Below, piece by piece: positions 6,016 through 63,012 of a stretch of DNA of 64,000 nt. Made by a program: the position numbers and the translations under genes. A model generated the notes under the pieces. That model was not told the origin of the DNA, did no database searches, and saw only the letters and a list, made by a program, of their open reading frames with translations. Source of the stretch: Escherichia phage IME08; sequence record NC_014260.1, one strand, 5' to 3'. How positions within the stretch are numbered: the first letter of the stretch is position 1; each line of letters opens with the position of its first letter.

Positions 6016-6053
6016 ATAGGGTAATAATATCACTACCCTACCATATTGTATAC
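6016..6053 (-). promoter_or_regulatory. sigma70-type early promoter (variant -35 GTATAC, -10 TATTAT) with conserved CTATCAAC block
   Basis: plus strand shows gttgatagg...ataata...gtatac 20-60 nt above the start of ORF 5775..5993. Confidence 0.45.
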
Positions 6054-6065
6054 TGTTTTTAAACT

Positions 6066-6632
6066 TTATGCAAAATGAATATCAGCATACTCAACGATAT
6101 AGCTCTCAGGGACAACCTTAAAGGTTCCAAGGAACACGATGTTATAGAGCTTAACGCCTTCTTCAACCCACTGGTCGGTGATGTAACCGGACATACTAGT
6201 GGTTTCATAAGTACCGAAAATTTCGTCATAGTATTCAAACGGCTTAGGGGAAACGAAAAAGACACCTTTACCCAATTCCCATTTAAAATCGACACCCACA
6301 TGAGACTGGTCAATAGTTTCAACGTCTTGAGCTACTACGCCACGGATATCATTGCTTTCACATACATACCCATCATGGGATTCAACTTCTTCAACTACAG
6401 GAGCGATGTACCCAGTGAATTCAGTTGATTCCAAGAATTTAGCACGCACATAAGCGAATTGGGTTTCAGTTTGACCATTTTTAGGAATGATGCGCACTTT
6501 TACTTCAGAATTTTCTTCACTGACACCTTCTTTAAGTTGGATGCTAACAACTTCAACTAAATGGCCTGCAGCTTTTGAACGAGACTTTTTGGATACACGA
6601 ACAATACCGCCGATATCGGAAATAGTAATCAT
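6066..6632 (-). CDS. hypothetical protein, paralog A
   Basis: 188 aa; C-terminal 32 aa (GYITDQWVEEGVKLYNIVFLGTFKVVPESYIV) closely matches the C-terminus of the adjacent 183-aa ORF. Confidence 0.6.
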   Translation of the reverse strand: MITISDIGGIVRVSKKSRSKAAGHLVEVVSIQLKEGVSEENSEVKVRIIPKNGQTETQFAYVRAKFLESTEFTGYIAPVVEEVESHDGYVCESNDIRGVVAQDVETIDQSHVGVDFKWELGKGVFFVSPKPFEYYDEIFGTYETTSMSGYITDQWVEEGVKLYNIVFLGTFKVVPESYIVEYADIHFA

Positions 6633-6674
6633 AATTTTTCTCTCTTGGTTAAAGGTTTATTCTCCATGAGAGCC

Positions 6675-6703
6675 ATTATAACATGGCTCTCGATAAAGTA
6701 AAC
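6675..6703 (-). promoter_or_regulatory. sigma70-type early promoter: -35 GTTTAC, 17-nt spacer, -10 TATAAT, embedded in a 9-bp inverted repeat
   Basis: minus strand reads GTTTACtttatcgagagccatgtTATAATggctctc; GAGAGCCAT / ATGGCTCTC are perfect inverted repeats (6668-6691). Confidence 0.6.
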
Positions 6704-7255
6704 TTAATTATAAATTTTAACCACCATAGAACGAGGTACTACACTAAAACTACCACAGTGAACAACGTTAAGAAGTTCAACACCATCTTCAACCCACTGG
6801 TCTGTTACCCAACCACATATAGGATTATCAAAAGGACGACGGATAGACACAGCAGCACACAGCAGGTCAGTAGGGTCTTGTTCGACTTCAACTTCTTGGA
6901 ACAGGATGAACTCTGCTTCATAAACCAAGATTTTCTCTATTTTGTTATTATCTAATCGACGGCCGTGGATGACGTAAGATTTGGCAAACCAGTCACTTTT
7001 GGTAAATTCTTCAACAATAAATTCGCCTTCGCCAAAAACCTCAGTCAGAGTTTTATGGCCGGAAATCAAGGCATTAGTTTTAATTTCAGGTTCAACCAGT
7101 TTGTAGGTTTTGCCGATTTTGATAGTCTGAGTAGTCATAGTAGGTTCCTTAATTTCCAGTGGTTTAACAGGGCATACATAAGTGCTTAAAACATCAAAAT
7201 CAATCAGTTTAGCTGCCGGATTCGGGGTATATTTAGGGTTATAATTAAATTTCAT
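6704..7255 (-). CDS. hypothetical protein, paralog B
   Basis: 183 aa; C-terminus GWVTDQWVEDGVELLNVVHCGSFSVVPRSMVV similar to paralog A. Confidence 0.6.
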   Translation of the reverse strand: MKFNYNPKYTPNPAAKLIDFDVLSTYVCPVKPLEIKEPTMTTQTIKIGKTYKLVEPEIKTNALISGHKTLTEVFGEGEFIVEEFTKSDWFAKSYVIHGRRLDNNKIEKILVYEAEFILFQEVEVEQDPTDLLCAAVSIRRPFDNPICGWVTDQWVEDGVELLNVVHCGSFSVVPRSMVVKIYN

Positions 7256-7761
7256 ATTGTTCTCAATTCAATAAAATCTACGAGTTCGGCATGAGATTTG
7301 CGGAACATTACTTGGCGACCGCCGATGACAACCTCATCTTCTGGTATTTCGTAAACAGCAAGATAGAATCCTTTAGAAGATAATTCAGCACGCTCTTCAC
7401 GAGTGAACCAGCGCATCATATCATACTCGCTGGCAAAAGCAAAATGGTAGAGGTTAACAAACCAACTAGGGATATAGTTATCTACATCTTTATAATCTTC
7501 ATGTTCGAATTTGGTTTTAATTACCGTATTAGAATTTCTAACCAACAACTTGTCTTGACTTGGTAGTGGAATGTTTGCATTATTGGTGTGGTGGTGTCTA
7601 AAATTAGGTCTGTCGAAACCCACTTCTAATAACCAACCTTCACTCCATTCGTCAAATGAGCCTCTATACGGGGTTAATTGGCGACATTGTTGACGAGTGA
7701 TTGCGATAACATCGCTGTTGTCTAAGATACTGAACGATGACTCCACTCGATAAATTTTCAT
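7252..7761 (-). CDS. hypothetical protein
   Basis: 169 aa ORF with its own early promoter upstream. Confidence 0.55.
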   Translation of the reverse strand: MKIYRVESSFSILDNSDVIAITRQQCRQLTPYRGSFDEWSEGWLLEVGFDRPNFRHHHTNNANIPLPSQDKLLVRNSNTVIKTKFEHEDYKDVDNYIPSWFVNLYHFAFASEYDMMRWFTREERAELSSKGFYLAVYEIPEDEVVIGGRQVMFRKSHAELVDFIELRTI

Positions 7762-7775
7762 TTTGTTCTCCTCAT

Positions 7776-7817
7776 GTTGATAGGGTAGATAATATCATGT
7801 CATGAGGAGAAGTAAAC
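7776..7817 (-). promoter_or_regulatory. sigma70-type early promoter (GTTTAC, 17 nt, TATTAT)
   Basis: plus strand gttgatagggtagataatatcat...gtaaac 15-55 nt above ORF start at 7761. Confidence 0.6.
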
Positions 7818-7821
7818 ACTT

Positions 7822-8732: not shown

Positions 8733-8739
8733 ATTTTCC

Positions 8740-10368: not shown

Positions 10369-11103
10369 TTAACCTCTAATCAGTGAAAAAATTGAAGCAT
10401 TCAGCGGAAGACCTTTTTTCAACTTCAATTTGTCAATAAAAGAAAGGTGTTCTAAACGCTCCAGACCTTGAATAATTTTATCATACATATCGTAACGCGT
10501 TTCTGCTTCAGATAATTTAAACTTGACGCGCCAATCAGGCCCACCAATTAAAGATTTAAGACCCTTTTCCATCATACCAATCGAAGCGTTAGAACCGTGG
10601 ATACGAGCTTTAACCGCGATAACAGAAGGGGTCTTATCAGTAGCTCCTGATTTAATAAGGTCCTTAAGACGTTTTTCACGCTTTTTAAGACCTCTTTGGG
10701 TATCTTTAATATTTTTAACGATTTTACGAATTTTATAATAATTATCTGGGGTAACTTTAAAACTATTAGGCATTTTAGAACCACCTGAAATACGAACCGC
10801 CAAACGAGTCTGGGCCCGTTTAAGTTCGTCAAGAGATAAATCGGCACGTAAGCTGTTGTACTTAACTTTAACCGGGATTACATTACCCTCAATATAGCCG
10901 ATATCGTTGTTAAAACGTTCAAATGAAATCTTATCATTAACTGAATTCTCATCAAAGCGCTCGCCTGAATAAGCACACACTTTTTGTTCGAGAAGTCTAC
11001 GAACATACTTACTAGATAGGTTGAAGTCCTTACCACGTTTATAAGCAGAAGCTTTGGTGTGTTTGCGGCGGTTGTAAACCTTTAACTCAAATTCAGTAGT
11101 CAT
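10369..11103 (-). CDS. srd: putative anti-sigma factor Srd-like protein
   Basis: 244 aa, basic; size and position between dda and modA match T4 srd; no independent motif. Confidence 0.6.
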   Translation of the reverse strand: MTTEFELKVYNRRKHTKASAYKRGKDFNLSSKYVRRLLEQKVCAYSGERFDENSVNDKISFERFNNDIGYIEGNVIPVKVKYNSLRADLSLDELKRAQTRLAVRISGGSKMPNSFKVTPDNYYKIRKIVKNIKDTQRGLKKREKRLKDLIKSGATDKTPSVIAVKARIHGSNASIGMMEKGLKSLIGGPDWRVKFKLSEAETRYDMYDKIIQGLERLEHLSFIDKLKLKKGLPLNASIFSLIRG

Positions 11104-11130
11104 GATATTTTCTCATCTTACGGACGATTA

Positions 11131-11171
11131 GTTGATAGGTCTATAGTATCATGTTGCTTGGTAAAGTAAAC
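11131..11171 (-). promoter_or_regulatory. sigma70-type early promoter with full conserved block
   Basis: minus strand GTTTAC + 17 nt + TACTAT + AGACCTATCAAC; 28 nt above srd ATG. Confidence 0.7.
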
Positions 11172-11240: not shown

Positions 11241-11855
11241 TCAGTAAGAAAGAACGGAAAGATTCCAAATGGTGTAATTATTCCATTTAGGATTTCTCTC
11301 AATAGAGTCTACGCGCAGCGTAGTTCCCGCAGGGAACATCATCTCATCTTCATCATTGATTAATTGTAAGTTTGCTACACGGGTAGATTCAGGAAATGCG
11401 CCTGGGAACTCTTCAGGGGGCGCGGCACATAACATTTTAAAGATTTCTTCCTGATAATTGTACACAAATGGTGCATCATTAATACAAAAGATATTAAATG
11501 TGCCGTAGAAGTTATAAGATGCGAAATTCCTTGCCACGTTGAAGTCTTTAGAGAAGCTCATTACTCGGTCGAATTCAATTACGGCACCTACACACATCGT
11601 AGATTCAAGATATGCCATAGTCTTCTTAGAAATCCCACGATACAACTTATCAGGCACTACAGAAGTCAGGTTCTTACGAATAATTTTGTTCAGAGTTTCC
11701 TGGATAGTATCTGGTTTATTTTCCATACACTGCCAGAGGGTACTCTGTTCTAAATCAGAATACACCTCATCAATTTCTATCTGAGTATTCTCACGGAAAT
11801 CATCGCATTTAGCGTTGTTGATAAATTCTGCTAATTTATGGCTTGGGTATAACAT
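11241..11855 (-). CDS. modA: ADP-ribosyltransferase (ModA/ModB family)
   Basis: 204 aa; shares LYRGI...FS...ARNFA motifs with the adjacent paralog; position matches T4 modA. Confidence 0.7.
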   Translation of the reverse strand: MLYPSHKLAEFINNAKCDDFRENTQIEIDEVYSDLEQSTLWQCMENKPDTIQETLNKIIRKNLTSVVPDKLYRGISKKTMAYLESTMCVGAVIEFDRVMSFSKDFNVARNFASYNFYGTFNIFCINDAPFVYNYQEEIFKMLCAAPPEEFPGAFPESTRVANLQLINDEDEMMFPAGTTLRVDSIERNPKWNNYTIWNLSVLSY

Positions 11856-11862
11856 ATTATTC

Positions 11863-11910
11863 TCCTCAGTTGATAGAAAGATAGTACCACAAGCTTCCTT
11901 GCCTGTAAAC
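11863..11910 (-). promoter_or_regulatory. sigma70-type early promoter (GTTTAC, 18 nt, TACTAT)
   Basis: gttgatagaaagatagta...gtaaac directly above modA start. Confidence 0.5.
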
Positions 11911-12479
11911 TAAAAATCCAACATTTTTAAATGAATTGTTTTGTACTCGATTTCGTACGGGTCCCTTTTGATGGTTTCGATTTCAACAATCTCGAAACGT
12001 GATAGGCTGGAGACCATGAACTCACATTCAGTTTCAACCATATCATAGAGGTCGATACGGGTTTCATCTATTTCAAGCTCATCCACATTCCCTGCAAGAA
12101 CAAGGTCGATAGCATGATTGTAGTAGTCGAAAATGAACGGTGCATTCCTGAGACTTAAAATGGTTTTGGTTCCATACTCCCATGCCCCTGCGAACTGACG
12201 AGCCTGGGAGTATTGTGTACTAAAAGAAGTAACTCGACCAGGAGACCATTGACACCCTACTGAAAGGAGCTCTAATTGCTCAAGTTCTCTGGTGGTAATC
12301 CCACGATACAACTCTACTGGAACCGCTGAAGTAACATGCTTACGAACCAGTTTGTCGAGGTCGTAATGGAAGTTAGGGTCTTTTTTGGCATCTAGACATT
12401 TTTCTAAAAGATTCTGTTCGTGTTTTGAGAATTTGGAATTGATTCGGTCTTGATAAAGACATTTTTGTTCGATGTTCAT
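11910..12479 (-). CDS. modB: ADP-ribosyltransferase (ModA/ModB family)
   Basis: 189 aa; paralog of preceding ORF (ELYRGIT, SFSTQYSQARQFA). Confidence 0.7.
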   Translation of the reverse strand: MNIEQKCLYQDRINSKFSKHEQNLLEKCLDAKKDPNFHYDLDKLVRKHVTSAVPVELYRGITTRELEQLELLSVGCQWSPGRVTSFSTQYSQARQFAGAWEYGTKTILSLRNAPFIFDYYNHAIDLVLAGNVDELEIDETRIDLYDMVETECEFMVSSLSRFEIVEIETIKRDPYEIEYKTIHLKMLDF

Positions 12480-12504
12480 ATGACCTCCAGTGATTTAGAG
12501 GTCA

Positions 12505-12532
12505 TTATAACATGAAGGGAGGAGGTGTAAAC
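12505..12532 (-). promoter_or_regulatory. sigma70-type early promoter (GTTTAC, 16-17 nt, TATAAT)
   Basis: minus strand GTTTACacctcctcccttcatgtTATAATgacc above modB. Confidence 0.55.
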
Positions 12533-14129: not shown

Positions 14130-14371
14130 AAGAAACCTCGTTTAAATTCAACCTTATCAATATCATCAGTCTCGTGACGGATTTCGGCATTAAATTCGAT
14201 AGAACCGTCTTCATGCATCATAAATGAATGGACAATAACTTCGGTATACCAAGGAGTATAAAAGTACTTTTTCAATACATGATTAGCGATAATTTCATCC
14301 AAAGTTTTATTTGGTTTAATCCAACGATTTAACATAGTGTTCTCCTCTATAAGATAATACCATCTTAACAC
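14126..14371 (-). CDS. hypothetical protein
   Basis: 81 aa ORF overlapping next start by 4 nt. Confidence 0.45.
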   Translation of the reverse strand: MLRWYYLIEENTMLNRWIKPNKTLDEIIANHVLKKYFYTPWYTEVIVHSFMMHEDGSIEFNAEIRHETDDIDKVEFKRGFL

Positions 14372-14400
14372 AACCTTCCTAAAAAGTAAACCCTTAAAAC

Positions 14401-15231: not shown

Positions 15232-15888
15232 TTATTTCCTATTAAAGTTTTCTATCATTCGTCGATAACAAATATCAGGATATCCATTATCAACAGCTAT
15301 TTTATTAAATTTGGTGCGTTTAGGTTTATTATTGTAAACCCATAATTCATAAAGCATATCGTAACTATTCCATATTTCTCCGCGCCTAGGATTTGGCAAA
15401 CCATATCGAGGGGAATCTTTACCACTAAATCTTCCTTTTCTAGCTTTACTCATATTGGCCTTAGCTTCATCAGATATAATTTTATCTTTATGAGCCAGGC
15501 GCATTTTGGCTTTAGTTTCTTCAGGAGTTTTCATCCCTCTAATCCAGGAAGGTTTACCAAACATCGGGTTATTTTTTCCTGAAAATGCTTTAGCGTTATT
15601 TTCTCTTAACGTGGCTATAGTTCTACTAGTTAATTTAACTCCTTTATTATATCTCATTAAATTAACAGCATAATGTAGACCTTTTACTTCGGGATATATT
15701 TTTGTTAAAAGCCTATGAGCTACAAAGTGTTCTCTTGGCAATAAAGCAACTAAATTGTTTTTATCATCAGAACCATTCATACATCTAGGTATAACATGGT
15801 GTTCTTCCGTATAATATGATAAAGACCGCTTAGAACCTCTTAATTTTCCTTTAGATATTAATTCCTGGTATATTTTTTCGTAATTCAT
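15232..15888 (-). CDS. HNH homing endonuclease with NUMOD-like repeats
   Basis: 218 aa; HNH motif EEHHVIPRCMNGSDDKNNLVALLPREHFVAHR; repeated NPMFGK/KDSPRYG modules; AT-rich ORF inserted between gene 56 and gene 61. Confidence 0.8.
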   Translation of the reverse strand: MNYEKIYQELISKGKLRGSKRSLSYYTEEHHVIPRCMNGSDDKNNLVALLPREHFVAHRLLTKIYPEVKGLHYAVNLMRYNKGVKLTSRTIATLRENNAKAFSGKNNPMFGKPSWIRGMKTPEETKAKMRLAHKDKIISDEAKANMSKARKGRFSGKDSPRYGLPNPRRGEIWNSYDMLYELWVYNNKPKRTKFNKIAVDNGYPDICYRRMIENFNRK

Positions 15889-18222: not shown

Positions 18223-18508
18223 CTGTCACCTCTTTAACGATATTTTTGTTATCGAAATTGGCATCACAATACAAAACATAGTTATATTGCATAACACCAC
18301 CTGAAGCCAATTGGTCTGACACTTCTTTAACCATATCAGGGCGGTCGCGTTTAGTGATATTCATGATATCGGCATAAATCTGATGTTCGACCGATTCTTG
18401 GTCTGCAGTCATAGACCATTCACAAAGGTCTTTATCCAATCCAGCCGTAACTGGAGCCGTACCACATGATGCTACTGTAAGGATTGCTGCGATTAATAAC
18501 TTTTTCAT
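18215..18508 (-). CDS. sp: spackle periplasmic protein
   Basis: start set at internal ATG (MKKLLIAAILTVASCG signal peptide) with GAGGAG SD; mature region DKDLCEWSMTADQ...GGVMQYNYVLYCD matches recalled T4 Sp; the longer track ORF would include the promoter. Confidence 0.8.
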   Translation of the reverse strand: MKKLLIAAILTVASCGTAPVTAGLDKDLCEWSMTADQESVEHQIYADIMNITKRDRPDMVKEVSDQLASGGVMQYNYVLYCDANFDNKNIVKEVTGE

Positions 18509-18524
18509 TTTTAACTCCTCGTTA

Positions 18525-18566
18525 GTTGATAGGTCTATAGTATCACTACCATAGACCGTTGTAAAC
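18525..18566 (-). promoter_or_regulatory. sigma70-type early promoter with full conserved block
   Basis: gttgataggtctatagtatca...gtaaac above sp. Confidence 0.7.
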
Positions 18567-19143: not shown

Positions 19144-19473
19144 TTAGATTTCCTCACAGAAGGCCCATTCAGCATGGTAAACCGTGGCGCCTTTAGTATC
19201 ATTTAAACAAACCACATCTACCGGAGCAATTACACGATAAAGACGGGGTTCTCCTCCCACTGAACGAGCTGCACGTCCAGCATAAATCTTAGCCAAACCG
19301 ATATCTTCAGTAAAGAACACACGATTCAGGTTTTTCTTACGACCGGTTTCAGACAGAACTCCTGTTTCCTCAGGAGGGCAAAGCATATTACCGATATTAG
19401 CAACACTACAACTTCCGTGATAATACACTTTATATTCTGCTTTACAGTCGATGGTTTTCATTTTGTTCTCCAA
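19144..19473 (-). CDS. hypothetical protein
   Basis: 109 aa ORF with its own early promoter. Confidence 0.55.
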   Translation of the reverse strand: MENKMKTIDCKAEYKVYYHGSCSVANIGNMLCPPEETGVLSETGRKKNLNRVFFTEDIGLAKIYAGRAARSVGGEPRLYRVIAPVDVVCLNDTKGATVYHAEWAFCEEI

Positions 19474-19514
19474 GTTGATAGGTCTATAGTATCACGCCTA
19501 CAGGAGATGTAAAC
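19474..19514 (-). promoter_or_regulatory. sigma70-type early promoter with full conserved block
   Basis: gttgataggtctatagtatca + 17 nt + gtaaac. Confidence 0.7.
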
Positions 19515-19521
19515 CCTTAAA

Positions 19522-19546
19522 AACAAAAAAGGAGCCGAAGCTCCTT
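19522..19546 (-). terminator. GGAGC-UUCG-GCUCC tetraloop hairpin + U-run
   Basis: minus strand GGAGCttcgGCTCCttttttgttttt right after the gene 41 stop. Confidence 0.65.
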
Positions 19547-22549: not shown

Positions 22550-22681
22550 TTATTTTATTCCTCGGTTGATAGCCTTATCGACTATCTTCCGGACTTCTCG
22601 TTTCTCGAGCCAGCATAATAATAACAAGGCTCCGAAAGAGAATAATAACAAAATTATAAAAAGCAATAAAGGACCTAGCAT
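22550..22681 (-). CDS. small single-pass membrane peptide
   Basis: 43 aa hand-translated (MLGPLLLFIILLLFSFGALLLLCWLEKRE...); GAGGA SD 6 nt upstream; ATG overlaps stop of the 297-aa ORF. Confidence 0.45.
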   Translation of the reverse strand: MLGPLLLFIILLLFSFGALLLLCWLEKREVRKIVDKAINRGIK

Positions 22682-27419: not shown

Positions 27420-27656
27420 TTACTGTTTAACAATGATGATTTGTGCATTTGATTTACGTTCAGCGACGATAGCCCAGATTAAAGCCACTACCCAACCAAT
27501 CATCGTCCAACCTAACAGGAGATTAAGGAAGAAAATTCCTACATTACTACGAGTGCCTCGCAGAAGAGCCAAAATCCATGGTAAAAAGTAACCGATGAAC
27601 ATAATAGCCAGAGAACCAAATCCTAAAACACCAGCACTAACGATTAAAGCTTCCAT
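27420..27656 (-). CDS. imm: immunity to superinfection membrane protein
   Basis: internal start MEALIVSAGVLGFGSLAIMFIGYFLPWILALLRG matches recalled T4 Imm; two TM segments. Confidence 0.8.
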   Translation of the reverse strand: MEALIVSAGVLGFGSLAIMFIGYFLPWILALLRGTRSNVGIFFLNLLLGWTMIGWVVALIWAIVAERKSNAQIIIVKQ

Positions 27657-27674
27657 TATAATTTCCTCTAAGTA

Positions 27675-27717
27675 GTTGATAGGAAGGATACTACCACGTT
27701 CCATGTGGTATGTAAAC
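27675..27717 (-). promoter_or_regulatory. sigma70-type early promoter (GTTTAC, 18 nt, TAGTAT)
   Basis: gttgatagg...gtaaac between gene 43 stop and imm start. Confidence 0.5.
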
Positions 27718-40213: not shown

Positions 40214-40596
40214 TTAGCTGCCTTAACAATTTTCAGGTCGACGAATTTTTTCTTACGTTGGTTTTTCATACGACGGATAGTTTTATCCGTGATTTCACCA
40301 GGGCACCAAGCTTTGGATTCAACACCAAAGGCAGCGACATCGAATTCATCAAGGATATATTGGACCAGGATTTCACGAATACCATTCTTACCAATTTTCT
40401 GGTCTTTGGAGTGCATGATTGGTAACAGTTCGGCAACCCATTGGTCAAGAACCTGAGGAGTTACAAAACCTGTTTTCATCAGTTCGTTTACTTTATCGAA
40501 AGCGAAAGAGTTCAGTACGTTTTTAATTGCTTGTGACATAATAATTTCCTCAGTTTTAAAGTTATAATCCGTAGGACCATTATACTCTGGTCCCAA
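40210..40596 (-). CDS. hypothetical protein
   Basis: 128 aa ORF. Confidence 0.5.
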   Translation of the reverse strand: MGPEYNGPTDYNFKTEEIIMSQAIKNVLNSFAFDKVNELMKTGFVTPQVLDQWVAELLPIMHSKDQKIGKNGIREILVQYILDEFDVAAFGVESKAWCPGEITDKTIRRMKNQRKKKFVDLKIVKAAK

Positions 40597-40607
40597 GAGT
40601 TTGTAAA

Positions 40608-40808
40608 CTATTTTTGTGCTTTAGCGCCTTTCCAACCTTCGAACATCATTGCTGCGGAAATTAACAAAGCGCCTGAACAAGCTGAATATTTGTGGTTCCA
40701 AAACCAGTTCAGAAAAACTTCGTCATCAATACCTTGGGCTATCATATTTTCAAAGAACTGACGACGGGCTTCAGAAATTTGCTGTGATAATTTAGATTCA
40801 GGATTCAT
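40608..40808 (-). CDS. hypothetical protein
   Basis: 66 aa ORF. Confidence 0.4.
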   Translation of the reverse strand: MNPESKLSQQISEARRQFFENMIAQGIDDEVFLNWFWNHKYSACSGALLISAAMMFEGWKGAKAQK

Positions 40809-40947
40809 TTAAATTTTCCAATTGCCATTTTCATCAATGAATTTAACCCAGTCATTTACTGACCACTTGGTTGTATCGCCTTTTGGAGCAACATTTAAAG
40901 TATACAACCCTTGCTTAAAAAGCATTCGTTTGATATTCATAGTTTCC

Positions 40948-41241
40948 TCAGCTGTAACGATAACATTCGTTTGATTTACGTTTTGCAACTTGATGAGAAG
41001 TATTGTAATCAGGTTCATCATCGTTGTAAACATCTTTTTTCAGCTTTCTCACTTCTTTACGAAGTTGGCGGTTCATTTCATTCTTAACTTCTGAGTCAAC
41101 GCCTCTCATACGTTTCCACTTGTCGGAACGGAAGATATTTTCTTCAACCAAATCCTGACTTACGCCGACCGGTGCTTTACGACGCCCGGAATAATAAAAA
41201 TCTTTTACAGACAATTCTTTACGACGGATAGTTTTACCCAT
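40948..41241 (-). CDS. hypothetical basic protein
   Basis: 97 aa, Lys/Arg-rich. Confidence 0.4.
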   Translation of the reverse strand: MGKTIRRKELSVKDFYYSGRRKAPVGVSQDLVEENIFRSDKWKRMRGVDSEVKNEMNRQLRKEVRKLKKDVYNDDEPDYNTSHQVAKRKSNECYRYS

Positions 41242-41498: not shown

Positions 41499-41677
41499 AA
41501 TTTAATTTCCTTAGCTATCGAACAAAACAAACTACGGTCACATACCATCAATGGAATATTTCTATGGTCTAGTACACGATACCATACGTCTGAATCGCTA
41601 GCAGCAATTACACGAACCGCACGCCCATTTACCAAATAATACTGGTCGGCTTTAATTTCTTTATCTTGGATAGTCAT
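41495..41677 (-). CDS. hypothetical protein
   Basis: 60 aa ORF with early promoter upstream. Confidence 0.4.
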   Translation of the reverse strand: MTIQDKEIKADQYYLVNGRAVRVIAASDSDVWYRVLDHRNIPLMVCDRSLFCSIAKEIKL

Positions 41678-41696
41678 AATGTTCTCCTCATGTGTT

Positions 41697-41735
41697 GATA
41701 GGATAGACTATAACATGTGAGGAGAGGAAGTAAAC
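41697..41735 (-). promoter_or_regulatory. sigma70-type early promoter (GTTTAC, 17 nt, TATAGT)
   Basis: gttgataggatagactata...gtaaac. Confidence 0.5.
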
Positions 41736-43443: not shown

Positions 43444-43659
43444 TCAGAACGCCTCGTCGGAAAAGCGAAGTTGAGCTTCAAGCCAATGAATATAATCGGC
43501 TGCAGCTTTAATCAAATCGGATTCTAAGTCAGGTAAAGAACCCGAATCCGACAATTCGTAAAGCGAATGTTCAATCAGACGGCCTTTATGACGGCCAACT
43601 TCAATTTTGGTACCCATATCCAAACTCCATATCGATGAAATCATTGTTTGAAGGTTCAT
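43444..43659 (-). CDS. hypothetical protein
   Basis: 71 aa ORF. Confidence 0.4.
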   Translation of the reverse strand: MNLQTMISSIWSLDMGTKIEVGRHKGRLIEHSLYELSDSGSLPDLESDLIKAAADYIHWLEAQLRFSDEAF

Positions 43660-43733
43660 TATACTCTATTTCGGAATCGTTGTAAACCGGTTCCTCTGGC
43701 TCGGTAGTTTTCCACCGAGCGACATACCATGGC

Positions 43734-45175: not shown

Positions 45176-46182
45176 TTCAGCAGCTCCAGAGCTTGTTCAA
45201 GACGGTCTAAACGATTGGTAGACTCTTCCCAAAGTTTCTTGGCGGCGGTATATTGGCCGGTCAGTTTTTTGTTAATAGCAAGGGCATCTTTATACGCTTT
45301 TTCTAAGGCCACGATTTCCGGTAACTTGGATTTAGTAATTGGTGTAGGGGCCATGATAGGGCTGTTCAAGTCGTTAATCAAATCTTCTAATGTAGCAGGC
45401 TCTTTATCAGTATTCACAATTTCCTCACATTTTTCTTGGTAAATTTCAGCGTCAGTTTTTGGAACGGTACATTTGATTTCACGGACTGTTACTAAAACTT
45501 CATATCCTTTCCAGCCTAAGTGATGTTTAACTTCTTGGGTCTCATATTTCTCTACGGTATCCATCAGAGCTAAAGCTTGTTCGATAGTATTCAAGGTATC
45601 GTAAGCAATATCTTGATACTTTACAACTTCCGCATCATCTTTAGGTTTCCTATTAGGTGACCAAATAACAGAAATAATAGCTTTTCCTTTATAACTATTT
45701 GTTTTAATCATGCAATTGGCCATCGGGTGAATAGTACGACAATCACCGGAAACTATAGTTTTAGAGGCCGCTTTGAGAATTAATGCAGAGTTAGCTTTGA
45801 ATTCGGTAACCCAACGTTGTGGAAATAAACTACTAGGGTCCATACCTTTAATTTTGATATAACTTTTTATGGTATCACCAAACCATTTGTAGCTAACAGC
45901 ATGGCTAGAACCCGGATGTTTCTCTTTGCCAAACTCTGAAAGGATGTCCTTATTGACCAGTCGCGAAAGCAGTCGAGAACCTTTAAATGTTTTAATGATA
46001 TCATGAATGCACAAACGGCCTGCAATCTTTTCGATTTCAGCTTTGAAACAGCGCGATAATGCATCATCAATTTGGTCGACCCATTTATTGATATTAGAAA
46101 CTATTACCACATATGGGGTTAATGGAGGGGTGTTGGCAGTGATATACGTAGTAAAGGCATTGATGTATTCAGTACGAGTCAT
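45172..46182 (-). CDS. hypothetical protein (nrdC.x region)
   Basis: 336 aa ORF with early promoter upstream. Confidence 0.6.
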   Translation of the reverse strand: MTRTEYINAFTTYITANTPPLTPYVVIVSNINKWVDQIDDALSRCFKAEIEKIAGRLCIHDIIKTFKGSRLLSRLVNKDILSEFGKEKHPGSSHAVSYKWFGDTIKSYIKIKGMDPSSLFPQRWVTEFKANSALILKAASKTIVSGDCRTIHPMANCMIKTNSYKGKAIISVIWSPNRKPKDDAEVVKYQDIAYDTLNTIEQALALMDTVEKYETQEVKHHLGWKGYEVLVTVREIKCTVPKTDAEIYQEKCEEIVNTDKEPATLEDLINDLNSPIMAPTPITKSKLPEIVALEKAYKDALAINKKLTGQYTAAKKLWEESTNRLDRLEQALELLK

Positions 46183-46197
46183 GATATTCTCCTCAAG

Positions 46198-46238
46198 TTG
46201 ATAGAAAGATTATACTCCATCCATCCTTGGATGTAAAC
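46198..46238 (-). promoter_or_regulatory. sigma70-type early promoter (GTTTAC, 18 nt, TATAAT)
   Basis: gttgatagaaagattata...gtaaac. Confidence 0.55.
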
Positions 46239-48224: not shown

Positions 48225-48749
48225 TTATGCGAGAACCGTCTTTAAACGCTCTTCAAATTTCTGAAGCAGAGCTTGGCGTTCAGCTCGTTGTGATTTGTAC
48301 TGCTCGATACGACCTGAAGTGAGGGCGTACTGTTCGTTTACTGATTCCCGCATGAATTCAGGAATCTCTTTACAAGCTTTTATTTCGTCAAACTTATCAA
48401 TAACCGCTTGTTCCTCGGCAATCAGATTATCGAAATAAGCGATATCAGATTTAACGTTTGCCAGGTCAGATTCAGTAGGCATTAAACGTTTGTTACGTTC
48501 AGCTTGATAAGCTTGATTGGTTTCACGACTCCAGTGAAGAGTACGTTTTTTGTTAGTGTTTTTATAGAGCTCTACAATACCAACTGAATCGATGACTGCA
48601 ATCCAGTTCCAACGGCTTTTGTAAATCTCTCCTCCAGATACGGTAATCTCATTACCACAAGCAACGTCGTTAAAGAACTTGCTTTGTTTTTCAGATTTGA
48701 AATTACCGTTGTTGAAATTAATCAGTGAAAAAATATCTTTAGCGTTCAT
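48225..48749 (-). CDS. hypothetical protein
   Basis: 174 aa ORF with early promoter. Confidence 0.55.
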   Translation of the reverse strand: MNAKDIFSLINFNNGNFKSEKQSKFFNDVACGNEITVSGGEIYKSRWNWIAVIDSVGIVELYKNTNKKRTLHWSRETNQAYQAERNKRLMPTESDLANVKSDIAYFDNLIAEEQAVIDKFDEIKACKEIPEFMRESVNEQYALTSGRIEQYKSQRAERQALLQKFEERLKTVLA

Positions 48750-48763
48750 GATAACCTCCAGTA

Positions 48764-48804
48764 GTTGATAGGTCTATAGTATCATTTCTACCGGAGATGT
48801 AAAC
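48764..48804 (-). promoter_or_regulatory. sigma70-type early promoter with full conserved block
   Basis: gttgataggtctatagtatca + 17 nt + gtaaac. Confidence 0.7.
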
Positions 48805-49158: not shown

Positions 49159-50139
49159 TTATTTCAGAAGTGTAACTTCAGCGATTTCGTTCCAGTCATT
49201 TTTATCGGTGGCAATGAAGTCCGCCAGATAAAGAGCTGTACGTAATGATACGTTACGAAGACGAGATACATTAGCCTTCATCCATGCTAAAGCTTGATAA
49301 GTCTCAGCATCAGTCAGACCTCGATTTTGCATCATATCAGTAGACAGGATAACGTCTTCAACACGAACCATAATCTCTTCGTTCGAGTGAACTCCGAGGT
49401 CTAAGTAAACTGAACGAGATACTAAAGCCTGGAGGTGCGGAGCAAGTTTAGTTCCACGCTCTAATTCACGGTCAATATCTACGTTGGTGATGAACACGAT
49501 GGTGCCTTCGTATTCGAATTCTTTATCGATGTTTTTATCATCGAGGTAAGAACTTGAAGTGCTCCAGCACACCTTACGTTTTTCACCAGTATCCAATGCT
49601 GCTTTTAACAGGTTCAGGATATCCATATCAGAGAATACATCAACATCATCGATAAGAAGAACACTATTAGGGCCGCGGTTATTCCAAAGCTGCTCGTAAA
49701 GACCGATTCCACTAATCTTTCCGTTGATTGATTTATATTCGATAGTTTCATTTTCGTGGGCATTTTGTAATGCTTTATCCAAAGAATACGTTTTACCAAT
49801 ACCTGCGGCACCAGAGATGATAAGGGAACGAATTTTACCATCGATGATTCCGTTGGTCATCATGTTCATTACTTTAAAACGTTTGTTGATGCGATGTTTC
49901 ATTTCTTCGGCGGATTCAGTAACCATTGCAGGAGCTTCAGCACCTTCCATTTCAACGTCACATTTGAACACCCATACACCACGTTCAACACCATCAATCT
50001 GTACGAATACCTTACCATCACCGAGATGAGCTTCGGATTCATGAATTTTATTAGGGAACCAGGTTTTACCTGAACTCATGAACGTACCAGAGATTTCATT
50101 ACCGCGATAGATACCTTTGTTGATTTTGATAGTTAACAT
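49159..50139 (-). CDS. P-loop NTPase (AAA-like)
   Basis: Walker A GAAGIGKT, Walker B LLIDDVD; start moved to ATG 50139 (GGAGA SD) because the track start lies above the promoter. Confidence 0.65.
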   Translation of the reverse strand: MLTIKINKGIYRGNEISGTFMSSGKTWFPNKIHESEAHLGDGKVFVQIDGVERGVWVFKCDVEMEGAEAPAMVTESAEEMKHRINKRFKVMNMMTNGIIDGKIRSLIISGAAGIGKTYSLDKALQNAHENETIEYKSINGKISGIGLYEQLWNNRGPNSVLLIDDVDVFSDMDILNLLKAALDTGEKRKVCWSTSSSYLDDKNIDKEFEYEGTIVFITNVDIDRELERGTKLAPHLQALVSRSVYLDLGVHSNEEIMVRVEDVILSTDMMQNRGLTDAETYQALAWMKANVSRLRNVSLRTALYLADFIATDKNDWNEIAEVTLLK

Positions 50140-50166
50140 TATATTCTCCGTTTCACTCAGTAGATT

Positions 50167-50205
50167 TGATAGGTCCATAATAACATGCTCTACGAGGGTG
50201 TAAAC
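50167..50205 (-). promoter_or_regulatory. sigma70-type early promoter (GTTTAC, 17 nt, TATTAT)
   Basis: tttgataggtccataata...gtaaac. Confidence 0.6.
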
Positions 50206-50221: not shown

Positions 50222-50246
50222 CCCAAAAAAGGCCCGAAGGCCTTTT
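50222..50246 (-). terminator. GGCC-UUCG-GGCC tetraloop hairpin + U6
   Basis: minus strand GGCCttcgGGCCttttttgggttt after stop of ORF 50248..51258. Confidence 0.6.
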
Positions 50247-53228: not shown

Positions 53229-53459
53229 TTAAATTTTTTCGAATAATGCTAAAGCTTTTTCGATAGCTACAGATTTGGTACCAATAACCATTTTAGGCTG
53301 AGATTGGAACTTAGTAGCTTCGTAAACTTCTAAACCGGTTACTTTACCATTTTGTTCGATAATAGCAAAGGTGGCGTTTTCAAAATCTTCAGCTTTAACT
53401 TTAAGTGCTTTAGAAGCTTTAGCGATATCGATAACTTTCAGGTTGGTGATGGTTTTCAT
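53229..53459 (-). CDS. hypothetical protein
   Basis: 76 aa ORF with early promoter upstream. Confidence 0.45.
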   Translation of the reverse strand: MKTITNLKVIDIAKASKALKVKAEDFENATFAIIEQNGKVTGLEVYEATKFQSQPKMVIGTKSVAIEKALALFEKI

Positions 53460-53475
53460 TTTGTTCTCCTCATTA

Positions 53476-53516
53476 GTTGATAGGTCTATAGTATCATGTT
53501 CCTAGAGGATGTAAAC
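53476..53516 (-). promoter_or_regulatory. sigma70-type early promoter with full conserved block
   Basis: gttgataggtctatagtatca + 17 nt + gtaaac. Confidence 0.7.
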
Positions 53517-53522: not shown

Positions 53523-53553
53523 ACGAAAAAAGGTCCCACCGAAGTGAGACCTT
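53523..53553 (-). terminator. GGUCUCAC-UUCG-GUGGGACC tetraloop hairpin + U6
   Basis: minus strand GGTCTCACttcgGTGGGACCttttttcg after the rI.-1 stop. Confidence 0.6.
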
Positions 53554-53556
53554 TGA

Positions 53557-56919: not shown

Positions 56920-57378
56920 TTAAAGATAGATTACTTTCGTGCTGGTTTTACCTTCTAAACGTTTAGAGTTAACAAATGCCATACGACATTTAAGGGAATA
57001 TCCTTTATCAGGATGTTTACGGTCTACGGTCATACCTAGCCATAAGGTTTTATCGGTAATTTCGAGACGCAATGGACGATACACTTTACCAGGGACAATT
57101 TCGGATTCTACATCAGGCAGAGGTTCCTGGATTAAGAATTCATGGATTTCTTTAACATGGTTATGGAGTTGCTTGAATAAAGCAAAAACGTATTTTTCGT
57201 CGATTTCACGTTGGATAGCACGGTCCAACAAATGATTAGAGTACTTAATAAAGAAGGCTGGGACTCCGCTCTTAACGGCGGCTTTTTTGATGGACGCATT
57301 CAGTTCGCGGAATTCGGTTTCGAACTGACGACGTAATTTGTTGCGGCGGATGAATACTTCTGAATTAATTTCTGACAT
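56920..57378 (-). CDS. regB: RegB endoribonuclease
   Basis: 152 aa; EVFIRRNKLRR...HLLDRAIQREIDE...YRPLRLEITD match recalled T4 RegB. Confidence 0.85.
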   Translation of the reverse strand: MSEINSEVFIRRNKLRRQFETEFRELNASIKKAAVKSGVPAFFIKYSNHLLDRAIQREIDEKYVFALFKQLHNHVKEIHEFLIQEPLPDVESEIVPGKVYRPLRLEITDKTLWLGMTVDRKHPDKGYSLKCRMAFVNSKRLEGKTSTKVIYL

Positions 57379-57394
57379 TTTGTAATCTCCTGTA

Positions 57395-57435
57395 GTTGAT
57401 AGGTTTATAGTATCATGTCTACAGGAGATGTAAAC
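57395..57435 (-). promoter_or_regulatory. sigma70-type early promoter with conserved block (1 mismatch)
   Basis: gttgataggtttatagtatca + 17 nt + gtaaac above regB. Confidence 0.7.
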
Positions 57436-57439: not shown

Positions 57440-57649
57440 TTATTCTTGGAATGGGGTAAGTTTTCCAGCAGCTGAACAAATTTCTACCAGTACAGGGTAA
57501 AACTCTTTCACTTGTTCAAGGCGTTGGGCTGCATACTGTACTTCGCCTTCTTCGAGACAAGCCATTTGGTCGTCAAGCAAGTATTTGTGGTAGCCTGTAC
57601 AGGCTTCACCGATGATACGCTGGAAATCTTGTAAACTTTCAATTTTCAT
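57440..57649 (-). CDS. hypothetical protein
   Basis: internal Met start at 57649 abutting upstream stop. Confidence 0.4.
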   Translation of the reverse strand: MKIESLQDFQRIIGEACTGYHKYLLDDQMACLEEGEVQYAAQRLEQVKEFYPVLVEICSAAGKLTPFQE

Positions 57650-58973: not shown

Positions 58974-59137
58974 AATTGTCTCTTTTTAAGTGGTGGGGCC
59001 ATTCCTTGGCACATAATTCGTCCATGTATCCGTATGTAAACCCTTTACCGCACTTGGGCTCGACCTTATTACAGGTAGGGAAAGGTCCATCACTCAGAGG
59101 ACGCGACGTTCATGAGGAGAGGGCCGGCTTGCCTTTA

Positions 59138-59437
59138 TTAGAAAGAACCAGAACCTTTAATTGTGTTCTGGCGACCTTTATTTTCTAATTCAGAGTGGTC
59201 GATTTCATATGCTTGTGCTACGCCAAAGGCCTTTTTAACTTTAGCTAAAGAACCTTTAGATGTAACAATATTAAAGGTATTGCCTTTGGTAAAATCAACC
59301 AAATCGACTTGTACACCCTGTTTACCGAGGCTTGCTACAATAGCATCAACATATTCTTGGTCTAAATTGCCTTGAACTCCAATTTGAAATGCTTTAGGAG
59401 CTTTGGCTTCTGTAATAAATTCTTGATAAGTTTTCAT
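59138..59437 (-). CDS. capsid internal protein with N-terminal capsid-targeting sequence
   Basis: 99 aa; begins MKTYQEFITEAK, the conserved targeting peptide of T4 internal proteins. Confidence 0.65.
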   Translation of the reverse strand: MKTYQEFITEAKAPKAFQIGVQGNLDQEYVDAIVASLGKQGVQVDLVDFTKGNTFNIVTSKGSLAKVKKAFGVAQAYEIDHSELENKGRQNTIKGSGSF

Positions 59438-59479
59438 ATTATTCCTTAAGTTGATAGAAGTATTCTATCACGGATTTAA

Positions 59480-59896
59480 TTAAGCGTAAATAGCCTTGCC
59501 ATAATGTTTGTACCAGGTAGGACGCTGTGCAATTTTTTCGTCCAAACGGGCCTGAGATATAGCAATAGAAGCTTCGTGGGGAACATAATCGCCACGGAAT
59601 TCCTGAGGAATATCACTAATGTCCTGGACTGTAGTATCCTTGATATTAAAGCCACGTTTTAAACATTCGGCTATAAGCTCGATTTGACGCTTACGTAAAA
59701 ATTCAAGCTTATCATAAAAGAAAGTAACATGGCCTGTACCAAGGATAAAAGTAGAGCTAATTTTAAAATCACGAACACGTTTACCATTAGCAACATGCTT
59801 ACGAACTGCACCGAAAACACGTGGTAATTCGCGATATTCAGCCATTAAGTGTTGGTCGGCCAATTCAGATACTAAGGTAAGGTTAATACGAGTCAT
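59480..59896 (-). CDS. denV: endonuclease V (pyrimidine dimer DNA glycosylase)
   Basis: start at [31 protein letters not shown]...; essentially identical to recalled T4 DenV. Confidence 0.95.
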
Positions 59897-59956
59897 TTTA
59901 GTGTTCTCCATGTTTGTGTGAGAACACTATATCACAGCTATTGTAAAAGTAAACTG

Positions 59957-60259
59957 TTATTTACCTTTAATTGCTTTAGCTGCTTCGGTAGCCGCTTGCT
60001 GAAGGTCATCCATAGACATACCAAACTTAGAAGCAAAGTTATCAATTTTCTTTTCGACAGAATTCAAAGGCTTGGCCTGTTTACCTTCATTAGCGCCCGG
60101 GAGAGCGAGAATACGCTCTTTGTCAATATAAAGGCTTACAAGTTTCTTACGGTCTTTATCTGGCAAATCATGAAATGAATGGGCCTTTTTATTTACAGCG
60201 GCTTCTAATTTACCTGCGGTTACGCGGGCTTCAGTGATAAATTCATTATAAGTTTTCAT
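59957..60259 (-). CDS. capsid internal protein with capsid-targeting sequence
   Basis: 100 aa; begins [12 protein letters not shown]. Confidence 0.65.
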
Positions 60260-60740
60260 ATGCTTTCCAAGTACCTGTTTTAAATGTTGAAATCACGCGC
60301 TTAGCACGATTAGGAGTTTGTTTATACCAACGGGATTGAGCCAGGTTAACTGCCGCATCGTCCCAACGTTTCTGTTGGAGCATACGTAAAGAGTTAGTGA
60401 ACCCAGCTACACCTGCTTCACCCATCTGGAAGACCATGTTAATTAAAGCACAACGACGAACTTCGTCCAGTACATCATAAACAGGTTTCAATTTAGGATT
60501 ACGCAGAATAGCTCTACGAGCATTTTCAACCGATCGGTTAAAGAGTTGTTCAGCTTCAGCCATAGTAATACGACCGTTGCAAACCCGGCCCATAAGCTTA
60601 TCAAGTTCGGCACGAGCAACATCTTTTGAAGGGTTTTTGGTAATCAACTGGCCAATCCCAATAGTCCAATAACCTTCGGTGTCTTTATAAAGATTTAAAT
60701 CAAGACCTTCGTCTTGACGTAACATATCAAAAATATCCAT
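60246..60740 (-). CDS. e: lysozyme (endolysin)
   Basis: 164 aa; [32 protein letters not shown]... near-identical to T4 lysozyme including catalytic E11/D20/T26 context. Confidence 0.95.
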
Positions 60741-60770
60741 AATACCTCCTGAGTATAGGAGGTATTTATA

Positions 60771-61220: not shown

Positions 61221-61449
61221 TGTCTCGGTCCCATGATTGTTTAAAGATATCTCGTATAATAATTTCAACACACGTTTCTGTTGACGGACTTTCACTATCA
61301 GATATTTGGACCATATAATCAGAAATAGGTCGGAACATATCCAAGTCGCTTTCTAAATCTTCTTTGATTTTTTCTTCTGACGTTCCGGTATCATAGGAAT
61401 ACAGATAAGAATCACATGACTCAGATTTAATATAAATTGCAATACTCAT
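61213..61449 (-). CDS. hypothetical acidic protein
   Basis: 78 aa ORF. Confidence 0.4.
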   Translation of the reverse strand: MSIAIYIKSESCDSYLYSYDTGTSEEKIKEDLESDLDMFRPISDYMVQISDSESPSTETCVEIIIRDIFKQSWDRDNE

Positions 61450-62033
61450 TTACGGCATTCCTCAATAAAAGAGTTTAATGTATTTTTCTTGGAGATATCA
61501 TCATATACCTTTTTAACTTTAGAAATACGAAAAGGTACTTCGATAACCGAGGTCCATAAAAATGACGCAATAAGACCCGAGATAGCCGCAGACATCGCTG
61601 AAGCGAATACACAAATAGGCAGGTCATTATCTGTTGTCAGGAAAAACCAAAGGAGTGGAAAAAATAATATTCCCATCCAAACATAGAACCTAGAACTCAC
61701 TAATTTGTCATATTCGTCACTCCATGCGCGAAAGCCGTATTTTTTACTATAACAAATCAACGGGTCCGGAGTCTGCTCTTTATGTGGTTCAGGTTGCCAA
61801 CCGTTTACGATATAACCCATTTTATATTCCTCAATTAAAAGCTGTTTCATTTCAGCAGTACAACCTGACCAATCTATTGTACTGGCTGAAATTCCTTCAT
61901 CACCGTCATCGAGATTTCGCCAGGACTTTTTAATAATCATATTCTCACCGCTTGGGATAATAATTCCGGCATTTTCCGACCGACGGATGAAGTTTACATC
62001 AATGCCCATACACCCGGGTTCATAAAGGGCCAT
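61446..62033 (-). CDS. membrane protein
   Basis: 195 aa; C-terminal hydrophobic helices. Confidence 0.5.
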   Translation of the reverse strand: MALYEPGCMGIDVNFIRRSENAGIIIPSGENMIIKKSWRNLDDGDEGISASTIDWSGCTAEMKQLLIEEYKMGYIVNGWQPEPHKEQTPDPLICYSKKYGFRAWSDEYDKLVSSRFYVWMGILFFPLLWFFLTTDNDLPICVFASAMSAAISGLIASFLWTSVIEVPFRISKVKKVYDDISKKNTLNSFIEECRK

Positions 62034-62719
62034 TACCAGCCCTCCATAGGGAATTCCAGATAAACTTGAGCATTAACACGGATTTCATTAGTAATCTTTT
62101 TAACACGGTCGGTATTACGAGAGACACGACCAAACCAGCGCCAACCGTTACTTACTGCACGAGAACCTGTATGCCATGTCTGCCAATCAAATTGGAGCAA
62201 CGTGCGGTCAGGAGCATCCCACTTGGTTAATTCATTGGACTCAATTTTTTCCAGAACTTCTTTATGCCACTGGCGATAGATAAGTTCGCCTTCAGGAATC
62301 TGGCTAAATTGCGCAGTTCCGGTTGCAAAATGGGTAGGACACACATCAGCGTTAACAAGACCAAGAATATGTTCAGAATGGTAACGAGGATTATCATAAT
62401 CAGGCTGCCCTGCGGTAATAAAGTGTTGGCCAACCGGAATATCCGGACGTGGTACATCATCATGGTGATAACCTGGGATAGCAGGGTACCAGCCAGGCAT
62501 CAGCATATGAACACGAGAATCAAATACAACCCGGTCAGTGTTCCAATCATCCGGTAGGTTCATGATGAAGCTGCGAGTAATAGGGCCACCATTATCAAAA
62601 GCGAAGGCCAACGAGCTGTTGAAGAACATAGGTTCGTTTTTGATTTTATCATTAGAAATTTTACCAGCGAAACCACCTACTGCACGAGCTTTAGAATTAA
62701 AAGTTTTTGGACCGTTCAT
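62033..62719 (-). CDS. hypothetical protein
   Basis: 228 aa ORF, His/Trp-rich. Confidence 0.55.
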   Translation of the reverse strand: MNGPKTFNSKARAVGGFAGKISNDKIKNEPMFFNSSLAFAFDNGGPITRSFIMNLPDDWNTDRVVFDSRVHMLMPGWYPAIPGYHHDDVPRPDIPVGQHFITAGQPDYDNPRYHSEHILGLVNADVCPTHFATGTAQFSQIPEGELIYRQWHKEVLEKIESNELTKWDAPDRTLLQFDWQTWHTGSRAVSNGWRWFGRVSRNTDRVKKITNEIRVNAQVYLEFPMEGW

Positions 62720-62733
62720 AATATTTTCCTCAC

Positions 62734-62946
62734 TTACTTTTTGTTGAAAAAGTACATTTTACCTTTAGGGGATAAGGATACACGAAGTGCGTTACCGATA
62801 CCAACTGAACATTTAACCAGGTCAGCAGATTTCAATTCACCGAATGCTTGACGAAGGTCACCGTCACGAGTGTTAACCATCAGGCATTTAGCACCAGCTG
62901 CACGAACTTCGTTTAACATGTTGATTGCTTGGTTAGAAAGTTTCAT
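62734..62946 (-). CDS. hypothetical protein
   Basis: start at ATG 62946 with GGAGA SD, below the promoter; the track's longer form would contain the promoter. Confidence 0.45.
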   Translation of the reverse strand: MKLSNQAINMLNEVRAAGAKCLMVNTRDGDLRQAFGELKSADLVKCSVGIGNALRVSLSPKGKMYFFNKK

Positions 62947-62971
62947 TTTATTCTCCATTTCACTCTGTTGT

Positions 62972-63012
62972 TTTGATAGGTCTATAGTATCATGCCTATA
63001 GACCTTGTAAAC
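62972..63012 (-). promoter_or_regulatory. sigma70-type early promoter with conserved block
   Basis: tttgataggtctatagtatca + 17 nt + gtaaac. Confidence 0.65.

Follow-up and report, generated by a model that had tools for sequence, protein, structure and literature searches.

The first 64 kb of Escherichia phage IME08 from rIIA (NC_014260.1; this whole stretch of 64,000 nucleotides is the window) carries a family of repeated promoters in which conservation runs past the −35 and −10 hexamers through a further block, CTATCAAC, located at about −2 to +6. These sites are very probably T4-type early promoters of a JS98-like (Dhakavirus) relative of T4, block included, and the family as a whole is best explained, with high confidence, as a set of strong early promoters that would be used by the unmodified host sigma-70 RNA polymerase. 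Comparison with T4 suggests that the block is largely the start-site consensus of T-even early promoters and not a new element, and is thus essentially a rediscovery. The most interesting residue appears to be a lineage-wide hairpin around the −10 hexamer, seemingly kept by compensatory change, together with its connection to RegB-type ribosome-binding sites.

The window DNA is 91–96% identical to the genomes of Dhakavirus (JS98-type coliphages), and its gene order from rIIA onward is collinear with those of JS98 and T4. The promoter census looked for the promoter frame with a ribosome-binding site and an open reading frame (ORF) behind it, and gave 23 T4-type promoter-like sites, all on the minus strand, like the ORFs they serve and all sizeable ORFs in the window. 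The minus-strand anatomy is GTTTAC, 17–18 nt, (TGn)TAnnnT, 4–5 nt, (AGAC)CTATCAAC, a Shine-Dalgarno (SD) sequence and ATG. The −35 hexamer is GTTTAC at 21 of the 23 sites and the extended −10 element TGn is present at 19, while the spacer between the hexamers measures 17 nt at 12 sites and 18 nt at 11 (16 and 17 nt in the sigma-70 frame). A generic sigma-70 scan also flagged the TG at family sites and picked up the upstream terminators; with 69 matches against 56 expected it was barely over chance and therefore useless for the census. The 20 nt upstream of the −35 hexamer are modestly enriched in A+T (69%, with 38% A, against strand-wide values of 61% and 31%). The sites lie immediately ahead of, and are co-oriented with, orthologues of T4 early genes. 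Collinearity names the served genes as cef, motB, motB.2, srd, modA, modB, mrh.2, sp, imm, 55.2, 55.4, 55.6, nrdC.4, nrdC.8, nrdC.10, regB, denV and an internal-protein gene, besides several ORFans.

The block is present at 15 of the 23 sites, 13 times as exact CTATCAAC (three of these shifted by 1 nt) and twice with CTATCAAA; the other eight sites lack it. In plus-strand orientation the 21-mer GTTGATAGGTCTATAGTATCA occurs in five exact and two one-mismatch copies, all of them on the plus strand and against none expected by chance, and the 8-mer GTTGATAG occurs 17 times against 2.2 expected. Fourteen of the 17 are on the plus strand, and the three on the minus strand (18101, 28897 and 56331) represent the chance level. 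A sequence-only reading of the window had reported at least seven near-identical copies of the 21-mer and a family of about 16 promoters, and the latter count is right. Its view that the elements read on the minus strand as sigma-70-type T-even early promoters ending before an SD sequence and ATG is borne out at the family sites by their anatomy and their position before the served ORFs, and logos show that conservation does extend past −10 through the predicted start site. The 17 nt it placed between the 21-mer and GTAAAC should be 14 nt in six of the seven copies and 15 nt in one; 17 is the spacing of the hexamers. An orphan block copy, GCTATCAAC, is located at 22565-22573 upstream of uvsX; it may be a decayed promoter or a chance occurrence, and this GTTGATAG match at 22565 was not accepted as a family member for want of a recognisable −35 or −10.

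The same scan, applied to 150 kb of the T4 genome, found 40 GTTTAC-N17/18-TAnnnT sites, ten of them with CTATCAAC as far behind the −10 hexamer as in the window, and all ten with TACTAT. The T4 early promoters read as a consensus of ...TACTAT-ACAA/TACC/AGAC-CTATCAACTA. The T4 promoter upstream of denV, GTTTACATCTCCTGTAGGTATGATACTATAGACCTATCAACTACAGGAGAAC, is identical to the window regB promoter at 47 of 50 positions and to the window promoter at 19514 at 40 of 42 positions. Downstream of −10, the window and JS98 have the consensus AGACCTATCAACTA, and T4 has AAAACTATCAACTA. The T4 early-promoter consensus, start-site block included, is therefore common to T4- and JS98-type phages; it weakens in RB69 and is absent in RB49. 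A search with a 65-nt consensus located 17–20 places in each Dhakavirus genome, 6–11 in a second coliphage group and 1–4 in T4-like genomes. Since the block is found in T4's own early promoters, its explanation by the T-even early promoter consensus, which the sequence-only reading had named as a refutation, largely holds. The consensus of T4 early promoters (Pe) was reportedly set out by Liebig & Ruger in 1989 and by Miller et al. in 2003. A full-text literature search for CTATCAAC returned nothing relevant. T4 early promoters have been described as having "additional regions of consensus" beyond the UP element, −35, TGn and −10 (PMC2988021), and in those of RB69, RB49 and 44RR C is favoured at positions −3 to −1 (PMC1524935).

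The T4 record provides a rule for placing the start site, as it names one promoter Pe133295 and position 133295 is the seventh base after the −10 hexamer of that promoter. By analogy with this numbering, we infer that +1 would be the A of CT-A-TCAAC and that transcripts would begin AUCAAC, such that the block would extend from the end of the discriminator across the start site to the sixth transcribed base. No usable T4 start-site dataset was found in the literature search. Distant orthologous regB promoters (RegB 59–99% identical) have only C/T-T-A at −2 to +1 in common, the block region reading, for example, CCTATCAAC, CCTACAAAT, CTTATATCA, TCTACACCA or TCTATCAGT. Most likely, this core would fix an efficient pyrimidine(−1)/A(+1) start 7 nt past the −10 hexamer. 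The longer near-identity would mark a single subfamily of paralogous promoters, made uniform within each genome by recombination or gene conversion between cassettes of promoter and ribosome-binding site. The start context CCT-A-TC is presumably at odds with the published NAD-capping preference.

Several points weigh against this interpretation. The equivalence of the block with the consensus is drawn from the T4 sequence itself and not from a published logo, and the label "early" is given by homology to T4. With eight of the 23 promoters lacking it, the block is dispensable for promoter function. The start-site rationale would cover the CTA core only and not the TCAAC beyond it. Lastly, only four of the 19 indels relative to JS98 have an edge in a promoter cassette, which gives cassette shuffling weak support. 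As found, the result matters little beyond being a clean promoter map for the Dhakavirus early region.

The individual block-bearing promoters, all on the minus strand and referred to by their upstream coordinate, are as follows. Exact 21-mers are found in the promoter of a 76-aa ORFan (53457..53516), whose translation initiation region, GGAGAACAAAA, fits the strong RegB-site consensus; in that of nrdC.8 (48747..48804), where the stem between spacer and SD contains two G.U pairs (fold z = −3.5); in that of an orf34-like gene resembling RB69 orf040c (19459..19514), the initiation region of which likewise fits the RegB-site consensus; in that of sp (spackle; 18506..18566), with the −10 enclosed by the hairpin GGTCTATGGTA / TACTATAGACC (z = −3.7); and in that of srd (11101..11171), which shares the leader CGTCCGTAAGATG with T4. 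The variant CCTATCAAA is present in the promoter of a JS98 orf121-like gene (62944..63012), as a one-mismatch 21-mer with a hairpin over −10 (arms AGGTCTATAG / CTATAGACCT, z = −4.8), and in that of nrdC.10 (50137..50205). TCTATCAAC is present in the promoters of nrdC.4 (46180..46238) and modA (11853..11910), and in a promoter with the −35 hexamer ATTTAC (59435..59491) that precedes an internal-protein gene. The latter encodes 99 aa (59138-59437, minus strand), its JS98 orthologue is annotated as an internal head protein, and its start, MKTYQEFI, is what we take to be the capsid-targeting leader typical of T-even internal proteins. The block is shifted by 1 nt in the promoters of 55.6 (41675..41735), with a spacer-SD stem (z = −5.4), imm (27654..27717), with no strong hairpin, and motB.2 (7759..7817), with an 11-bp spacer-SD stem, TTCTCCTCATG / CATGAGGAGAA (z = −5.4). 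For the last of these, dexA was considered as the served gene and ruled out, the region upstream of dexA being coding. The block is also present in the promoters of regB (57376..57435), where the spacer pairs with the SD region in an 11-bp stem, ATCTCCTGTAG / CTACAGGAGAT (z = −6.4), and cef (5991..6053), which has GTATAC as −35 and a hairpin around −10, TGGTAGGGTA / TACCCTATCA (z = −4.4).

The promoters and promoter-like sites without the block are also on the minus strand. They precede denV (59894..59954), 55.4 (40938..41031), 55.2 (40537..40608; hairpin GGGACC / GGTCC around −10), mrh.2 (14333..14391), modB (12477..12532; ACCTCC within the spacer complements GGAGGT at the SD) and motB (6630..6703; hairpin GAGAGCC / GGCTCTC around −10, z = −5.1), and two further sites are located at 43615..43687 and 2744..2793. 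The 55.4 site, GTTTAC/TACAAT, lies within the 55.5 coding region, 61 nt before 55.4, and is found in the same place in T4 and RB69; it is therefore probably a real internal promoter. Intrinsic-terminator-like hairpins with a T-run stand directly upstream of the promoters at 53516 (53529..53554, minus strand), 50205 (50227..50246, minus strand) and 19514 (19531-19544). All three are GC-rich with UUCG-type loops.

About half of the family promoters lie inside a sense-strand hairpin, in which the spacer between the hexamers pairs with the start region or the ribosome-binding site. In the window, the mean duplex energy of a spacer with its own downstream region is about −9.7 to −9.9 kcal/mol, compared with −7.1 to −7.2 kcal/mol for non-cognate pairs; the T4 values are −11.4 and −6.9. 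None of 20000 permutations reached the observed value in the window, T4 or JS98, and nine of 20000 did in RB69, while the same permutation test gave no signal in RB49. Duplexes of −10 kcal/mol or below are formed by 10 of 22 promoters against 3.9 expected, and 10 of the 16 promoters folded have z-scores of −3.5 to −6.4. The hairpins can be divided into two classes. Class I (6053, 6703, 18566, 40608 and 63012) has arms that flank or include the −10 hexamer; in class II (7817, 12532, 19514, 41735, 48804, 53516 and 57435) the 5′ arm follows the −35 hexamer and the 3′ arm is the SD region. Class II is predicted to mask the SD completely and class I to leave it free. No hairpin was found at the T4 sp promoter or at the window promoter at 11171.

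Between orthologous promoters the hairpin is retained although the stem sequences are unrelated. The regB promoters have at least six stem solutions, the motB promoters have GAGAGCC/GGCTCTC or GGGACC/GGTCCC (motB loci from IMG/VR were left out, not being anchored at the start codon), and the sp promoters show a compensatory pair, GGTCT/AGACC versus GGACT/AGTCC. Of the mismatches within stems, ten are G.U and one is A.C (p = 0.012, a small count that includes paralogues), which suggests that it is the sense strand that folds. As the 5′ arm lies upstream of +1, the whole hairpin can be formed only by RNA started further upstream, and the embedded stems, having no U-tract or T-run, are not canonical terminators. 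An Rfam search of the whole window gave no match at the gathering score. In the regB promoters of some other T4-like phages (loci L081-L085 and L089-L090) double nested hairpins are seen, with an inner stem round −10 and an outer stem pairing TCTCC/TTCCTT with the ribosome-binding site GGAGA, a combination of both hairpin classes.

These hairpins raise the possibility, to which we give less than even weight, that the block and the embedded stem act at the RNA level on read-through transcripts in addition to their promoter function. In one class the fold would hide GGAG, so that translation and exposure to RegB, a nuclease specific for GGAG, would occur only on transcripts from the promoter itself, and TATCA would be conserved partly by its pairing with UG(A/G)UA. 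The cognate complementarity, the fold z-scores, the G.U excess and the replacement of stems between orthologues, with the compensatory change at sp, all favour such a role. Moreover, the strong RegB/S1-site consensus GGAGRAYARAA has four exact matches (7761-7771, 19461-19471, 53459-53469 and 62946-62956, minus strand), and all four are in SD or initiation regions just behind family promoters, although with one mismatch allowed the consensus is not enriched overall (11 versus 10.9 expected). There is also a precedent in T4, where the hairpins of e, soc, 49 and I-TevI each contain a late promoter whose transcripts have a free ribosome-binding site (PMC3014915). On the other hand, the control with foreign spacers failed. 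The predicted SD accessibility is 0.33 on read-through RNA versus 0.52 on the promoter's own transcript, but foreign spacers gave 0.25, so that the cognate ones give no lower value, and the idea that the hairpins generally serve to mask the SD was rejected. Only about seven of the 23 promoters mask the SD, with a predicted probability of it being unpaired of 0.00 on read-through RNA versus 0.4–0.6 on their own transcript. In addition, some promoters are hairpin-free, the inner helix of UGAUA with UAUCA is weak, there are few G.U mismatches to count, and G.T is tolerated in single-stranded DNA too.

A more specific form of this idea, which we put forward tentatively, is that T-even early promoter, hairpin and GGAG site may form a unit tying expression to transcript origin. 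RNA from the promoter itself would have an open, RegB-sensitive GGAG and would be translated at once and then inactivated, whereas read-through or middle-mode RNA would fold over the −10 and start region, and in one class over GGAG, and would be neither translated nor cut. If true, this would offer a structural explanation for RegB attacking early transcripts and sparing most middle or late ones. Such a unit was not found stated for early promoters in the literature searched, a scope outside which the older T4 papers lie. Hairpins that in part mask RegB-type ribosome-binding sites make the discrimination of RegB between early and later transcripts directly testable.

A second explanation would deny the block any function of its own and regard it as a patch of homology that remains where mobile promoter cassettes have recently duplicated or recombined, in the manner of the modular shuffling described for promoter-early stem-loop (PeSL) cassettes, a literature that backs such a process (PMC2839356, PMC4122927). 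The long identity is that of one subfamily, TG(A/G)-TACTAT-N4-CTATCAAC, whose variant is genome-specific, and the 21-mer, like the block in T4, always accompanies TACTAT. The nrdC.8 promoter, for example, has TGG...ACAAC in T4 and TGA...AGACC in its window orthologue. At srd the leader CGTCCGTAAGATG is kept in the window and T4 with a different core from −10 to +8, and in place of the denV promoter found in JS98 and T4 the window has another; the promoter cores at both loci have been exchanged relative to JS98 or T4. Genome-specific variants at orthologous promoters point to concerted evolution by cassette exchange, which the preferred reading also includes. Relative to JS98, the 76-aa ORFan was inserted exactly between a family promoter and the next gene, and it is flanked in the SD region by a 15-nt direct repeat, TAATGAGGA(G/A)AACA, as expected of recombination between conserved initiation regions.

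Nevertheless, copies of the identical 21-mer have unrelated spacers (11171 versus 18566, for example), which speaks against a recent copy of the whole cassette and implies that the conservation is position-specific and not just the result of recent duplication. The block also persists across genera whose coding DNA has strongly diverged, and the edges of indels fall in cassettes in 4 of 38 cases against roughly 6.5% expected, itself an estimate, so they are not clearly enriched there and the enrichment was rejected as unconvincing. Taken together, we consider it rather unlikely that the block is such a patch without a function.

Several differences from JS98 were seen in the window. Window 59900-60266 corresponds to JS98 59072-60261 by replacement or deletion, with the denV promoter as the edge; the denV promoter common to JS98 and T4 is ATCTCCTGTAG...CTACAGGAGA, and the window has a promoter of that type before regB instead. 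The 76-aa ORFan (53229-53459, minus strand) has no Pfam match and is absent from JS98. A 69-aa ORFan (57440-57649, minus strand), also without a Pfam match, separates the vs.4 stop codon from the −35 hexamer of the regB promoter and is likewise an insertion with respect to JS98. In the interval from gene 56 to gene 61, a 682-nt segment without JS98 counterpart contains a 218-aa ORF (15232-15888, minus strand) with NUMOD3 over the cut-off and HNH just under it, which is probably a free-standing homing endonuclease. A 205-aa ORF (37221-37838, minus strand) in a 607-nt segment absent from JS98, adjoining gene 47, matches GIY-YIG weakly and below the threshold; it may be another such endonuclease.

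The least probable explanation is that block and inverted repeat form an operator, overlapping −10 and +1, for a phage or host DNA-binding protein, which could be an early-promoter shut-off factor or a determinant of Alt stimulation. The inverted repeat TGATA-N9-TATCA, noticed in the sequence-only reading, does exist, with nine copies in the window against 0.13 expected, always inside family promoters; the protein site proposed for it has no positive support, and its left arm is fully accounted for by TGn and the first two bases (TA) of the −10 hexamer. In favour of an operator, T4- and JS98-type phages share the block, early promoters are shut off by unknown strategies according to a review, and promoters with identical −35, TGn and −10 respond differently to Alt (PMC2988021). 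However, seven of the ten T4 block promoters read TGGTA, so that the palindrome in the DNA is broken and the dyad not conserved while the block is kept; across relatives, the two half-sites do not show independent conservation. In the predicted folds the UGAUA/UAUCA arms form instead a small apical helix of a larger RNA hairpin. With a third to half of early promoters lacking the block, only CTA kept in more distant orthologous promoters and no candidate protein identified, an operator is very improbable. TATCAAC was also compared by eye with a DnaA box and with the integration host factor (IHF) core WATCAA, and both were dismissed because the flanks do not fit. The role of the conserved start region, the shut-off of early promoters and their stimulation by Alt (PMC2988021) are points for specialist attention.

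The closest known counterparts of the window promoters are the early promoters of T4, with which they share GTTTAC, TGn, TAnnnT, strand, gene neighbourhoods and CTATCAACTA after the −10 hexamer; the modest enrichment in A upstream of −35 may be a further common trait. TGA-TACTAT-AGACC dominates in the window and JS98, TGG-TACTAT-ACAAC in T4, and the block is commoner in the window (15/23) than in T4 (10/40). The window promoters are predictions from sequence. The very strong host-polymerase phage promoters T7 A1 and lambda PL also produce transcripts that begin A-U-C after a C-rich discriminator end, as here, but they have no extended shared block and do not form a repeated cassette family. 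The hairpins of T4 e, soc, 49 and I-TevI resemble those described here in that the 5′ arm is upstream of the start site and the 3′ arm lies over the SD, a geometry that fits about seven of the 23 window promoters and many T4 early promoters. The internal promoter of those T4 genes is, however, the late TATAAATA, compared with an early sigma-70 type in the window, and many window hairpins do not touch the SD, the masking here being a predicted one.

PeSL cassettes were described for RB49 and phi1 and later for T4/PST and KVP40/nt-1 (PMC2839356, PMC4122927). Elements of T-even internal-protein loci, the subject of Repoila 1994 as cited in the PeSL papers (PMC2839356, PMC4122927), are regarded as PeSL analogues that use T4 early promoters and have weaker, AT-rich stems (Arbiol 2010, PMC2839356). 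The window cassettes resemble PeSLs in combining an AT-rich stretch, an early promoter, an SD sequence and ATG with a stable stem-loop inside or beside the promoter (between or over −35 and −10), and in being repeated many times in plastic early regions, and some window indels and promoter replacements end in a cassette. Four of 19 indels with a cassette edge and one ORFan insertion flanked by a repeat in the SD region lend modest support to shuffling, yet most indels relative to JS98 are away from cassettes. RB49-type PeSLs have near-consensus TTGACA/TATAAT and Gn-loop-Cn stems, while the window promoters have GTTTAC and heterogeneous A/T-rich stems that, when embedded, carry no U-tract. Without TTGACA and Gn-Cn stems, the window elements are, as judged from these features, T-even analogues and not homologues of the RB49-type PeSL, and the PeSL concept covers the form of their hairpins. 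In PST and T4 the stem-loop is placed upstream of the promoter (Comeau 2014, PMC4122927), and the order of terminator and then promoter at 53529-53554, 50227-50246 and 19531-19544 matches that of these T4/PST PeSLs.

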